A DNA stretch of 64,000 nt from an uncultured Verrucomicrobiae bacterium (GCA_963731265.1 CAVSUE010000001.1:32001-96000), one strand, 5' to 3'. Numbered from the stretch's first letter, positions 27,087 to 30,205 are shown. Program-made: numbers and translations. The notes: generated from the sequence alone by a model not told the origin.

Positions 27087-27911
27087 TTATGTTGCAGCAA
27101 ACATTTTTTGCAAATTCGGTTTTCTCCTTTCTTCGAGCTTGTCGATGACGATGGCCGATGCGACATTGTGAACCACGAGGCAGAGCATGTTTAGCGGCCA
27201 GCCACGGTACCATTTGCTGACGACTTTTCTCGATAATAGATGAGTAGGACTGATCTTTAGGGCTTGCTTTAAGGTATTTCCCATGTCGAATGGAGCTCCT
27301 ATTAAGCTTACTACCAATCCGGATTTGACCCCAATGATTGTCAGTTCGCGAAGGGATAATTTTTCTTCGGGTTTTTTTTGAGCTCGATCGCGGAAATATT
27401 TCTGGGCGGTCAGAAATGTTGACCGATTCACGCTGAGTTTTGTCCAGTGGGTAGTAAAACCGGTCCAGCCATCTTGGTATACATTGCTGAAAGAAAAAGT
27501 GGATTTACCGGTAAATGCCGACGTAATTTTCATTCTTTCTAGTGGTGTGGAAACGGCAGCATCGATTGTGGCAATCGCAAGTCCCGTGAAAATTTCTCGA
27601 CGGTAATCCGTGATGTGGTGACCCTCCAAAAAAAGGGGGAGGCCCGTCATCATCGGCCAGCTCCACAATTGTTTCAGACTTGTTCTTAATAAGTCGGCGG
27701 AAAGGCCCTGATAAAACGCTTTGGCTCCTTCTTGCCGAAATAATGTAAGGGCGATCTGATAACATTTTTCAGACTTCCCGGAACATTGCTGGCGGATTTT
27801 GACTACTTCCAAGGGATAAATCAGCGAATGTACAGCAATGCCTCTTGCAACGCCCCAGAGACTGCTTTTGATCAAATGCAGGGAAGTGGAATTGTCTACA
27901 TAGCTACTCAT
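27087..27911 (-). CDS. Mitochondrial carrier family (SLC25-like) protein
   Basis: Three ~90-aa repeats with Px[DE]xx[KR] signatures YPLEVVK, TPLERMK, APFDMGN (degenerate) and EGAKAFYQG / WYRGW motifs; AGGAG RBS. Confidence 0.88.
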   Translation of the reverse strand: MSSYVDNSTSLHLIKSSLWGVARGIAVHSLIYPLEVVKIRQQCSGKSEKCYQIALTLFRQEGAKAFYQGLSADLLRTSLKQLWSWPMMTGLPLFLEGHHITDYRREIFTGLAIATIDAAVSTPLERMKITSAFTGKSTFSFSNVYQDGWTGFTTHWTKLSVNRSTFLTAQKYFRDRAQKKPEEKLSLRELTIIGVKSGLVVSLIGAPFDMGNTLKQALKISPTHLLSRKVVSKWYRGWPLNMLCLVVHNVASAIVIDKLEERRKPNLQKMFAAT

Positions 27912-27935
27912 GAAATGTGCTCCTGAAGGATTTTA

Positions 27936-28094
27936 GAGTTGGTCTACGATTTTGTTGTTTGATTTTCGATGATTTTTTCTTTAGGATCTAATTCGGTGCC
28001 GCAGTACATAGTTAATTAACTAGGACAAGGCGCCGAATTAGATCCTAAAGAAAAAGGCGCGAAAAGAAATTAACAAAAATCCGTGGACAGACTC
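27936..28094. mobile_element. Palindromic MITE with TTA target duplication, truncating the MFS 3' end
   Basis: GAGT...ACTC ends, imperfect terminal IRs, core IR TTTTTCTTTAGGATCTAATTCGG/CCGAATTAGATCCTAAAGAAAAA, TTA at 27933-27935 and 28095-28097. Confidence 0.8.
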
Positions 28095-29308
28095 TTAGAC
28101 TTTTGCGATGCAACAATGACCCAACAGCTAGCTATTGCTAAGGCCATCCAATACCAAGAAACGCTTGCGATCATTCCTGTTTTTTTAAAGCTCCAAAGAG
28201 CCAACGCTGCCGTCGGGCTTCCTAAAAGTTGTGAGCCGAGTGCATAGCCTAAAGAGATGACCCCATACCGGCAGTGGGAAGGAACGAGCTGCTGTGCCCA
28301 GGCGTGGAAAGGGGCAAAAAAAGCGACGCCAAAAACGACAAAGAGGGTTCTGACTCCGATGACACCTCGAAAAGAAGCTCCTTTTAAGGATAAAAACAAA
28401 GGGAGCGAGAGGGCAACGACTCCTAATGCGGCCGAAAGCATCAGTTTTTCCCTTTGAATTTTCGAAGAAAGATACCCGAAAAAAGGCAAAGCGCAAAAGT
28501 CAAAAATGAGCAAATAGGTATTGATCTGCAGGACTTCCGCTTTTGTCATAGAGGAGACCAAAGGGACAAACCCGTTCATCAAGATCAGCGCAATAGAATA
28601 AGTCGCATGGGCAAATCCTGAACAGATCACAATGGACAAAAGAGGCTTTCGATAGGAAGTGAAAATGTCTTTTAAGTTAGGAGAGAATTTCATCCTTGGC
28701 TTGACAGAAGCGGCAGAAAACCGAAAGAGGCAACCAAACAATCCGGTGATGCAGCCGCATAGATAAAGCCAACGCCAGCCGGGATCGATGACGTTGTACC
28801 GGCTTAATAAAAAAACTCCCAAGGATGCTAGAAGATGGCCACCCATGGAGGAGGCGCTGTAAAGACTACTGAGTAGATCGTGCCGTTTTTCCGATGCATT
28901 TTCCAAAAGAAAAATCGCGCCGCCCATGATTTCCCCTGCTGCTAAAAAATTTTGCAGGACTCTTCCCAAACAAAAGAAAATAGGGGCGAGAATGCCTGCC
29001 TGTAGAAAGGTCGGACTGAAGGCAATGCAGCCCGAGACGAAGGACATGCCCGCTAACGTGAGAAATAGGGCGTGCTTGCGCCCATAAACGTCCCCAATGT
29101 AGCCGAACACTAACGATCCAAGAGGGCGCGCAAGTATTCCTAAGGGGATCATGGCATAGGTCAATAGGAGCGCTGTGATGGGCTCTTGCTTAGGAAAAAT
29201 CAAGGGAGCTAAAAATGCAGATAAGTACCCAAATAGAGCGGTATCATAGTGCTCAAAAAGATTGCCAACGCAGGCATTCCACATTTGTAAGCGTGAGGCA
29301 ATTTTCAT
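28070..29308 (-). CDS. MFS transporter (ProP/MHS-like), TPP-regulated
   Basis: GNLFEHYD, ARPLG...FGYIGDVYGRK, GEIMGG; ATGA overlap with thiE-like gene. Confidence 0.9.
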   Translation of the reverse strand: MKIASRLQMWNACVGNLFEHYDTALFGYLSAFLAPLIFPKQEPITALLLTYAMIPLGILARPLGSLVFGYIGDVYGRKHALFLTLAGMSFVSGCIAFSPTFLQAGILAPIFFCLGRVLQNFLAAGEIMGGAIFLLENASEKRHDLLSSLYSASSMGGHLLASLGVFLLSRYNVIDPGWRWLYLCGCITGLFGCLFRFSAASVKPRMKFSPNLKDIFTSYRKPLLSIVICSGFAHATYSIALILMNGFVPLVSSMTKAEVLQINTYLLIFDFCALPFFGYLSSKIQREKLMLSAALGVVALSLPLFLSLKGASFRGVIGVRTLFVVFGVAFFAPFHAWAQQLVPSHCRYGVISLGYALGSQLLGSPTAALALWSFKKTGMIASVSWYWMALAIASCWVIVASQKSKSLSTDFC

Positions 29309-30012
29309 AGGTCCTCTAAGAGTTTGGCCTGAATGGCTCGGATTTTCTGGGCGGTGAGCAACGGATCCATTACGTCCATCAGACCTCCTGCCATTGCAAT
29401 GCCATCGTCAAAACGGAGTTCTTTGTACACGGCTTCCGCCCGCTCTAGATGGATACCTCCAATGGCAACGATGCGATGAGAAGAAATGGCTCGTATGTTC
29501 CGTAGACCCTTCATGTCCCACAGTTGATCATTCCGGGGACAGGTTCGGTTAGATGCGGAAATTTTAACGCTGATGTAATCGACCTCGTTGGTCTGTGTAA
29601 CCGCTACGACATCATCCATTGTTTTGACGGGTATGCCGATAATTCCCTTTTCTCCTAATCGCTTTCTTGCTTCCGAATAGGGAAAATTTTCCTCTAAATA
29701 GACGCCATGGGCACCGATGGCTTGCGCCACTTCAAGCGGATTTAAGGTATTGATAAAGAAAGAAGTTCCCTCAAGGATCCGCTTCAAACGGGCTGCTGTT
29801 TTTAAAATGACTTCGAAATTACTCTGATGATCGCGGAGTTGGACACAGGTGACGCCGCCTTTTACAGACTCCAAGATCCTCGAAAAAAATACTCCTTCAT
29901 CTTGAAAAGAGGGACGATTGGCAACGAGATAAAGGGAAAGATCAAAACCAGGCCGTTCTTTTGGAAAGTGTAGACGGCTGCAAGGAAAAGCGCGGCGGCA
30001 GATCGCTGACAT
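29305..30012 (-). CDS. thiE: Thiamine phosphate synthase / TenI family protein, divergent
   Basis: DLSLYLV, GGVTCVQLR, IVAIGGI; AAGGAG RBS before ATG 30012; directly downstream of TPP riboswitch. Confidence 0.75.
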   Translation of the reverse strand: MSAICRRAFPCSRLHFPKERPGFDLSLYLVANRPSFQDEGVFFSRILESVKGGVTCVQLRDHQSNFEVILKTAARLKRILEGTSFFINTLNPLEVAQAIGAHGVYLEENFPYSEARKRLGEKGIIGIPVKTMDDVVAVTQTNEVDYISVKISASNRTCPRNDQLWDMKGLRNIRAISSHRIVAIGGIHLERAEAVYKELRFDDGIAMAGGLMDVMDPLLTAQKIRAIQAKLLEDL

Positions 30013-30085
30013 ATCGTAACTCCTTGGTTGAAAAAAAATGAACCACCAGGGAGAAAAACGAGGATAGAAATGAAGTTGCTCATCC

Positions 30086-30205
30086 ACACTTCCTACGCTG
30101 GCATTACCCAGATCAGGTGTATGAACCTATCAGCATCTTGCTGATAGCTTCAAAGGGTCTCTCTCAGCTAAGTTGCTTTTGAAGCAGACTTAGCACCCCT
30201 GGTGT
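30086..30205 (-). promoter_or_regulatory. TPP riboswitch
   Basis: Minus strand reads CAGGGGTGC...GCTGAGA...ACCC...ACCTGATCTGGGTAATGCCAGCGTAGGAA, the THI-box consensus. Confidence 0.93.

Follow-up and report, generated by a model that had tools for sequence, protein, structure and literature searches.

Why would a bacterium place a mitochondrial carrier gene behind a thiamine pyrophosphate (TPP) riboswitch? The question was raised by an operon on the minus strand of a 64,000-nucleotide (nt) stretch of DNA (GCA_963731265.1 CAVSUE010000001.1:32001-96000; the window), which is filed under an uncultured Verrucomicrobiae bacterium and which, judging from its nearest relatives only, we infer to come from a chlamydia-like organism. 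In this operon, the riboswitch is followed by genes for a ThiE-like protein and a permease of the major facilitator superfamily (MFS) and, after a 158-nt gap, by a gene for a divergent member of the mitochondrial carrier family (MCF). The data presented here led us to favor, with moderate confidence, the idea that the operon is a riboswitch-controlled import module for thiamine cofactor and that its membrane proteins reside in the bacterial inner membrane.

The first-pass annotation of the window had described a TPP riboswitch ahead of a thiE-like gene, an MFS gene joined to it by an ATGA overlap, and a gene for a 274-amino-acid (aa) carrier. As shown in Table 1, this layout was borne out by Rfam, Pfam, and the reading of open reading frames (ORFs), and the stop codon of the ThiE-like gene and the start codon of the MFS gene overlapped by 4 nt (ATGA). 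A promoter and terminator scan of the window yielded counts at or below the shuffled background.

Table 1. Coordinates of the operon and its parts in the window
Feature	Coordinates	Strand	Basis
TPP riboswitch aptamer (THI element)	30072-30210	-	Rfam RF00059 and our own covariance model
Predicted expression platform	30020-30053	-	RNAalifold on 12 leaders
ThiE-like (TMP-TENI fold) protein, 235 aa	29305-30012	-	Pfam, orthologue alignment
MFS permease, metabolite:H+ symporter type, 412 aa	28070-29308	-	Pfam MFS_1; TIGR00883 below cutoff
Palindromic MITE-like insertion, 159 nt, between MFS and carrier	27936-28094	none	
AGGAG Shine-Dalgarno sequence of the carrier, in the former MFS tail	27920-27924	-	
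Divergent MCF protein, 274 aa, six transmembrane helices	27087-27911	-	

We compared the operon with 19 related loci, which were retrieved, with the carrier as the query, from a collection in which a single genome represents each bacterial and archaeal species. The record titles of these loci were chlamydial in 12 cases, Verrucomicrobiae in 3, Acidobacteriota in 1, and "uncultured bacterium" in 3, and none belonged to a named chlamydia in culture. A TPP riboswitch was located upstream of the carrier gene and on the same strand in 16 of the 19 loci. In 15 loci, the aptamer passed the Rfam gathering score (56.9 to 68.3 bits), and the aptamer of L018 was added by our own covariance model (109 bits). 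A strict, handwritten regular expression for the TPP core matched 1 of the 19 loci, and the Rfam scans and our own model were used instead. The first-pass annotation had named carrier orthologues without a link to TPP operons as the outcome of a synteny check that would go against it; with the link present in 16 loci, its proposal withstood the comparison.

Gene content upstream of the carrier was determined via tblastn. The full set of ThiE-like, MFS, and carrier genes was present in 11 loci (L001, L002, L004-L007, L009, L010, L012, L015, and L018), MFS and carrier genes were present in 4 (L003, L008, L013, and L017), and ThiE-like and carrier genes were present in L014, which lacked a detectable riboswitch. 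The carrier was alone in L011, L016, and L019. Overall, an MFS gene stood ahead of the carrier in 15 of the 19 loci. In the case of L011, the aptamer (7776-7880) directly preceded the carrier gene (from about 7989), which was the sole regulated gene.

The first-pass annotation had also claimed that the carrier was once translationally coupled inside the riboswitch operon, and the junctions of the relatives bore this out. Fourteen loci had an MFS gene and a carrier junction that was intact, and in all of them, the stop codon of the MFS gene overlapped the start codon of the carrier, either as TAATG (five loci), as ATGA (seven loci), or through overlaps of 11 and 32 nt (two loci). The genes located after the carrier differed between loci (DUF4258, NUDIX, Fic, GNAT, LRR, COX2, MFS, or no family), which ruled out a conserved fourth gene and indicated that the conserved operon ends at the carrier. 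In the window, a 113-aa ORF without a family (26707-27048, minus strand) begins 38 nt past the carrier stop, and a gene for a PHB-depolymerase-like esterase (25712-26710, minus strand) comes next and overlaps it by 4 nt. Since tblastn matched neither of them in the 19 related loci, cotranscription of these two genes with the operon, if it occurs, would be genome specific. One of the compared operons, that of L018 (5793-8698), looked damaged or poorly assembled; its ThiE-like, MFS, and carrier matches were split across frames, and its riboswitch was altered at otherwise invariant positions (e.g., CUAAGA for CUGAGA).

In the window itself, an Rfam RF00059 search in E-value mode scored the aptamer at 42.9 bits (E value, 3.7e-07), with the whole of the model (1-105) covered. 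The default Rfam scan, which applies the gathering score, reported four tRNAs and no riboswitch in the window because the aptamer scored below that threshold. In an alignment with orthologous aptamers, the variable P3 region of the window aptamer was enlarged by an additional 32-nt hairpin, which accounts for the low Rfam score. The window aptamer aligned with the 15 orthologous aptamers that passed the gathering score, and a covariance model built from the orthologous riboswitches gave it 86.1 bits.

The leaders shared a second element downstream of the aptamer. We picked 12 leaders with a recognizable Shine-Dalgarno (SD) sequence and ATG out of the 16 riboswitch loci and the window, and common to all 12 was the series CTCC(C)TGGTGG, 15 to 20 nt, (A)ACCAGGAG, about 8 nt, and ATG. 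In the window, the anti-SD sequence CTCCCTGGTGG (30043-30053) is complementary to two alternative segments, namely, the SD region ACCAAGGAG (30020-30028) and, on the 5' side of the aptamer, the invariant strand CACCAGGG. RNAalifold predicted the SD-sequestering helix across 12 of 12 aligned leaders, with 4 of the 13 pairs altered on both sides, and the minimum-energy fold of the window leader paired the anti-SD sequence with the aptamer 5' strand. Because the leader contains this conserved SD-sequestering hairpin, riboswitch control is probably translational. Without TPP, the aptamer strand would hold the anti-SD sequence and leave the SD sequence free; with TPP, closure of the aptamer would release the anti-SD sequence, which would then mask the SD sequence of the first gene. 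Since the riboswitch would act at the first start codon, the signal would be relayed to the downstream genes through the overlapping stop and start codons. A further feature of the leaders was that all aptamer 3' ends read AGGAAGUGUG(G)AUG, that is, an SD-like AGGAAG followed by ATG. This ATG was, or abutted, the MFS start in L013 (about 3452-3467) and L017 (about 6742-6757), and it opened a short, nonconserved reading frame in the other loci.

The junction between the MFS and carrier genes of the window is interrupted. The first-pass annotation had assigned almost all of the gap to a miniature inverted-repeat transposable element (MITE) at 27936 to 28094 and had proposed that its excision with one TAA copy restores the overlap of the MFS stop and the carrier ATG. 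We found that the stretch from 27935 to 28095 was palindromic (76% match to its reverse complement over 166 nt), that its inner arms were 96% complementary, and that as RNA it formed a single end-to-end hairpin (-63.5 kcal/mol; z, -10.9), which none of 200 shuffles equaled. Direct copies of TCTAA flanked the insertion at 28095 to 28099 and 27933 to 27937; it thus showed the terminal inverted repeats and the target-site duplication expected of a MITE. The last eight MFS codons and the stop codon fell inside the insertion, and the MFS frame was preserved whether 159 nt were removed or 162 nt, which is the element together with one TAA. The 162-nt removal yielded the MFS tail ...QKSKILQEHIS*, the TGA of which overlapped the carrier ATG, just as had been proposed. 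This restored tail resembled the orthologous ...KKQVQILEQI*, and the present tail, ...QKSKSLSTDFC*, did not; the C-terminal tail of the window MFS protein diverged from the orthologous tails.

The insertion was absent from all 14 orthologous MFS-carrier junctions. Because these intact junctions all had the overlap, the ancestral state was the coupled one, and the insertion is secondary in the window genome. The MITE assignment held up in part: the hairpin ends, the flanking TCTAA copies, and the empty orthologous junctions agreed with it, but no second copy of the 159-nt element was found in the 64-kb window or in 260 kb of related loci, and for this reason, "MITE" is used here only as an architectural label. 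The palindromic element landed exactly at the MFS-carrier overlap, replaced the MFS tail, and broke the translational coupling, leaving the carrier with an AGGAG-ATG start of its own. The AGGAG sequence is located 8 nt before the carrier ATG, and an equivalent GGAG is present in the MFS tail of the orthologues. By breaking the overlap that would relay the riboswitch signal, the insertion may have loosened the control of the carrier in the window genome. Other long intergenic palindromes were present at 45139 to 45310 (81-nt arms at 81%), 18959 to 19189 (57-nt arms at 75%), and 20833 to 21149 (three copies of a terminator-like palindrome just past a tRNA). These were unrelated in sequence to the element at 27936 to 28094, and the window genome seems to be rich in hairpin elements.

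What kind of protein is the carrier? The Pfam Mito_carr search that had been put forward as a check on the 274-aa protein returned a match at 4.6e-18, in which repeat 1 alone was detected (residues 11 to 85). In a scan of 31 representatives, members of the close family had one Mito_carr stretch, and many distant matches had two or three. The first-pass annotation had counted three Px[DE]xx[KR] repeats; in MCF proteins, this signature motif is carried by helices 1, 3, and 5 and belongs to the matrix salt-bridge network. A regular expression search confirmed two of them, PLEVVK at residue 33 and PLERMK at residue 123, but not the third, which was PFDMGN at residue 207. The N that replaces K/R in this third motif was nearly invariant in the chlamydial carrier family, and the sister clade had K at that position. 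At the sequence level, only repeat 1 was canonical.

The AlphaFold2 model of the carrier, made from a 20-member family alignment, had a pLDDT of 83.2 and a pTM of 0.81 and contained six long helices and three sets of short ones. When the model was searched with Foldseek, the TM scores were 0.73 with human UCP1 and 0.65 to 0.69 with ADP/ATP carriers over about 285 columns, and the predicted structure had the full six-helix MCF fold of three repeats, each of which in this family spans about 100 residues and includes a short matrix helix. A count by eye of the charges on the carrier loops showed no positive-inside bias either way. The carrier family comprised 92 clusters at 90% identity (best, 93%; next, 61%), and an exhaustive search of 50%-identity representatives produced 100 matches below 1e-30 and 981 below 1e-3. 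Among 20 family members with 41 to 93% identity, 28 columns were invariant; the window carrier ORF was intact and kept the invariant residues of the family.

The weaker matches in the family search formed a coherent clade of canonical three-repeat carriers that were 34 to 44% identical to the first sequence of the clade. In an hhalign comparison, the chlamydial family and this canonical clade matched with a probability of 100% (E value, 2.3e-49; 24% identity over 259 columns). The named members of the canonical clade were a Blepharisma stoltei protein, two ORFs from protist transcriptomes, and a protein with an automatic "ornithine transporter" label. We then placed the family in a quick maximum-likelihood tree of 43 rows, which covered the family, the sister clade, and a few distant MCF proteins; its nonchlamydial rows were picked from the matches described above and do not represent SLC25 as a whole; L018 was omitted as frameshifted, L013 was partial, no bootstraps were calculated, and the outgroup was not clean. 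The 19 chlamydial rows formed one clade (SH-aLRT, 100), which joined the canonical clade on a long branch (length, 3.35; SH-aLRT, 100). This topology is consistent with acquisition of the carrier from a microbial eukaryote, although the direction, the donor, and the root are not fixed by the tree. The language-model neighbors of the window carrier were bacterial and giant-virus carrier clusters, and those of a sister-clade member were GTP/GDP carrier clusters; we treat both as leads only. Three sister-clade proteins (P0227, P0228, and P0232) had a hydrophobic, signal-peptide-like N terminus, which is unusual for mitochondrial carriers.

The first gene of the operon encodes the ThiE-like protein. 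Its ORF (29305-30087) was open up to a GTG at 30087, and translation probably begins with the ATG at position 30012, which is preceded by AAGGAG; this choice agreed with the MSAICR... start of the orthologues. The protein matched Pfam TMP-TENI at 2.2e-23 (83 bits; cutoff, 27), and a family profile ranked Pyrococcus ThiE first among solved structures (1.5e-21), followed by Candida THI6 (5.5e-20), Bacillus ThiE (about 4e-19), and TenI (1.6e-05). The ThiE/TenI fold was clear from this comparison. As shown by the alignment with Bacillus ThiE (3o15/3o16), the pyrophosphate-site Q, R, and N were retained in the family, and an invariant E was located two to three residues ahead of the D112 position. 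In addition, polar residues at the barrel mouth were invariant across 12 ThiE-like orthologues. Invariance at so many polar positions suggests that the site, though altered, works in a protein that, by alignment, is lacking several residues expected of a true thiamine-phosphate synthase. The 64-kb window contained no thiD, thiM, thiL, or other thiamine gene besides the operon. In a single-sequence search, the closest solved relative was instead the fungal bifunctional THI6 (PDB 3nl2, 5.4e-12), with which the ThiE-like protein shared the N-terminal motif FDxSLYLV.

The MFS permease matched Pfam MFS_1 (7e-17) and Sugar_tr (1.4e-12). Over the full length (15-394), it scored 193.6 bits against TIGR00883 (metabolite:H+ symporter), which did not reach the cutoff of 443.45, and on these matches it is best described as related to, but divergent from, the metabolite:H+ symporters and as standing outside any named equivalog. 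It was 59 to 74% identical to its orthologues, and the alignment had a mean column identity of 75%.

Taken together, these observations suggested how the operon might work. The operon would be one copy of a conserved chlamydial unit for the acquisition of thiamine cofactor, and both membrane proteins would be located in the bacterial inner membrane, where they would import thiamine species when bacterial TPP is low. Of the two sites of action that the first-pass annotation had left open for the carrier, the logic of the operon favors the bacterial envelope over host mitochondria, and the inner-membrane placement is further favored by the overlap with the gene for an inner-membrane permease in 14 of 14 junctions. 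By analogy with mitochondrial MCF cofactor carriers, the substrate of the MCF protein is most likely phosphorylated thiamine, either TPP or thiamine monophosphate (TMP). In the portion of the source used here, mitochondrial MCF carriers are described as importers of TPP (ThPP) and, in yeast and humans, also of TMP (ThMP) (PMC9311062). A bacterial parallel is provided by Babela massiliensis, the MCF genes of which are listed among its own nutrient transporters in the section of the genome report that we drew on (PMC4378268). More tentatively, and with a conviction that falls just short of even, we propose that a eukaryote-type carrier was domesticated as a bacterial inner-membrane importer of host TPP that is switched by the riboswitch and partnered with the MFS permease.

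Several observations weighed against the proposed import module. In the comparative data, the constancy of the carrier was built in because all of the loci were found by a carrier search; the sample holds carrier-bearing loci only, and MFS or ThiE-like genes without a carrier lie outside it. Our covariance model detected no riboswitch in L014, L016, or L019, and the carriers of L016 and L019 had neither an MFS gene nor a ThiE-like gene beside them. The window aptamer was below the Rfam gathering score (42.9 versus 54.3 bits). In the case of the carrier, the matches of the family profile to PDB carriers were confined to positions 10 to 85, the third repeat had N in place of K/R, and a regular expression search of the window carrier found no [FY][DE]xx[KR], the cytoplasmic network motif of MCF helices 2, 4, and 6. 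As for kinship to the mitochondrial TPP carrier subfamily, the nearest named leads in the PDB profile search were instead UCP2 and the GTP/GDP carrier. No fused MFS-carrier proteins were found among proteins of 481 to 2,000 aa, which is weak evidence. The ThiE-like protein did not reach the NCBIfam thiE cutoff (TIGR00693, 98.7 versus 145.1 bits). In Bacillus ThiE, the Mg2+/pyrophosphate ligands are Q57, R59, K61, N92, D93, and D112, with D93 and D112 as the Mg-binding aspartates; in the ThiE-like family, the lysine position was an invariant histidine, the D93 position was T or variable, and the D112 position was N, G, or P. Finally, in the part of the LncP report consulted here, that bacterial MCF protein is a secreted effector that reaches host mitochondria (PMC3252375).

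The last point invites the idea that the carrier of the window is itself an LncP-like effector, exported via the chlamydial secretion machinery to host mitochondria or to the inclusion membrane, where it would release or hand over host TPP or nucleotides. The MFS permease would then perform the inner-membrane uptake, and a transporter aimed at the host would be adjusted by the riboswitch to the cofactor status of the bacterium. In addition to the LncP precedent, which we know from part of the source (PMC3252375), such a two-step route over two membranes would explain the constant pairing of two transporters, and the window encodes effector-like proteins, such as the NEL E3-ligase domain protein at 140 to 1840. 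We nevertheless consider an effector unlikely: the overlap of the carrier start with the stop of an inner-membrane MFS gene in 14 of 14 relatives, in an operon under the bacterium's own cytosolic TPP sensor, is an arrangement typical of coinserted membrane proteins, and the drift of repeats 2 and 3 would be unexpected if host import machinery had to recognize the carrier. The ThiE-like gene raises a different idea, namely, that the transporters import the pyrimidine and thiazole halves of thiamine (or their phosphates), which the enzyme then joins into thiamine phosphate, and that the substrate of the carrier is a precursor rather than TPP. Two transporters plus a coupling-type enzyme were the commonest arrangement (11 of 19 loci), and the enzyme had a clear ThiE/TenI fold (E value, 1.5e-21 to Pyrococcus ThiE) with invariant polar residues at the barrel mouth in 12 orthologues. 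This kind of salvage is made improbable, in our estimation, by four loci with a riboswitch, an MFS gene, and a carrier but no enzyme, by one locus with a riboswitch and a carrier alone, by the sub-cutoff thiE score and nonconserved Mg/pyrophosphate ligand positions, and by the absence of thiD, thiM, and thiL from the 64-kb window.

Two other explanations concern the carrier alone. It might move a nonthiamine substrate, such as a nucleotide (exchanged as a counter-substrate or required for some unrelated purpose), and reside in the operon for coexpression. The nearest named leads were nucleotide-type and uncoupling carriers (the GTP/GDP carrier and UCP2), although these are leads only, and the distant orthologues in L016 and L019 were unlinked to thiamine genes. 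Against this, 16 of 19 loci showed the riboswitch linkage, and in one of these, the carrier was the only regulated gene. Riboswitch linkage is the usual pattern by which vitamin transporters were predicted, and we regard a nonthiamine substrate as quite improbable. Alternatively, the palindromic insertion might have uncoupled the carrier of the window, such that it is decaying or no longer coexpressed, an outcome to which the very stable hairpin in the 158-nt gap and the replaced MFS tail would lend themselves. We give this outcome almost no weight, because the carrier ORF was intact, kept its invariant residues, and had its own AGGAG-ATG, because a 93%-identical homologue of equal length was found elsewhere, and because the mRNA strand had no terminator-like T-run past the hairpin and the terminator scan was at background.

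Import of thiamine cofactor by the bacterium thus remained the reading that we prefer, and it has implications for how mitochondrial carriers are viewed. These proteins are regarded as a eukaryotic signature, and LncP, the one experimentally studied bacterial example that we found, is injected as an effector. The integration of a carrier into chlamydial riboswitch operons, together with its coupling to an inner-membrane permease in many chlamydial lineages, suggests that bacteria may also use such proteins for their own cofactor uptake and not only as effectors. If the proposal is correct, the chlamydial cell taps the host cytosolic TPP pool as a mitochondrion does; before this carrier, no SLC25-fold transporter would have been shown to operate in the membrane of a bacterium, and none would have been under riboswitch control. 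The TPP source of cells without thiamine synthesis, which is a gap in chlamydial metabolism, would be accounted for. An orphan carrier family would gain a substrate hypothesis of unusual clarity, and the recruitment of a host-type transporter by an obligate intracellular bacterium could be studied in a tractable case. A search of the full-text literature, outside of which lay subscription journals and regulon databases, found no paper that connects a chlamydial carrier with thiamine, with a TPP riboswitch, or with an MFS partner.

The remainder of the window contained several other features. Divergent from the riboswitch is a gene for an 817-aa protein (30308-32761, plus strand) with a weak, sub-cutoff match to an inverse-autotransporter beta-domain (20.4 bits); a fragment that was 59% identical to this protein was present at the edge of locus L016. 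The NEL protein mentioned above (plus strand) is 566 aa in length, and its C-terminal novel E3 ubiquitin ligase domain (1e-23) is typical of injected effectors. Two TnpB-like ORFs with a Cas12f1-like TNB domain (10214-11761, plus strand; 23231-24760, minus strand) were 97% identical over 509 aa, and a serine-recombinase/MerR ORF (9637-10251, plus strand) slightly overlapped the first of them, which suggests a recently active IS607-type element with two copies in the window. A gene for a McsB-like protein arginine kinase with an ATP:guanido phosphotransferase domain (35109-36732, minus strand) adjoins one for a UVR-motif protein, and the two form a McsA/McsB-like pair.

How does the proposed module compare with known systems? 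Bacterial thiamine transporters that are regulated by TPP riboswitches include ThiT, ThiBPQ, PnuT, YkoEDC, and similar proteins, and the operon resembles them in having a THI-box leader that shuts uptake genes off when TPP is plentiful. None of these transporters is known to be a member of the mitochondrial carrier family, whereas here the riboswitch regulates a eukaryote-type carrier together with an MFS permease that is akin to the metabolite:H+ symporters. The chlamydial and rickettsial TLC/NTT ATP/ADP translocases and the S-adenosylmethionine transporter share the lifestyle of bringing ready-made metabolites of the host in through the bacterial inner membrane, but they belong to unrelated families (12-helix TLC, DMT), and the portions of the sources used here report no riboswitch control for them (PMC3252375, PMC3104491). 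The MCF homologues of Babela massiliensis, Cardinium, and Neorickettsia are bacterial proteins of no known specificity and are likened to the window family by description only; the excerpts that we drew on report no thiamine or riboswitch context for them (PMC4378268, PMC6232779).

The closest comparisons are with LncP and with the mitochondrial TPP carriers (TPC). Like the window carrier, Legionella LncP, a secreted nucleotide carrier, is an MCF protein of an intracellular bacterium, according to the part of the report cited here (PMC3252375). The window carrier differs in that it belongs to a riboswitch-controlled metabolic operon, that in its relatives the gene overlaps that of an inner-membrane permease, and that only repeat 1 is canonical. 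Unlike yeast Tpc1p and human SLC25A19, the window carrier is encoded by a bacterium, is under riboswitch control, and has an MFS permease coupled to it, and it has degenerate repeats 2 and 3, a PxDxxN third motif, and no [FY][DE]xx[KR]; the likeness is one of superfamily. What the two have in common is the six-helix, three-repeat fold and a link to the supply of TPP, and in the sections of the source used here, TPC carriers import into a compartment that is itself of bacterial ancestry (PMC9311062).

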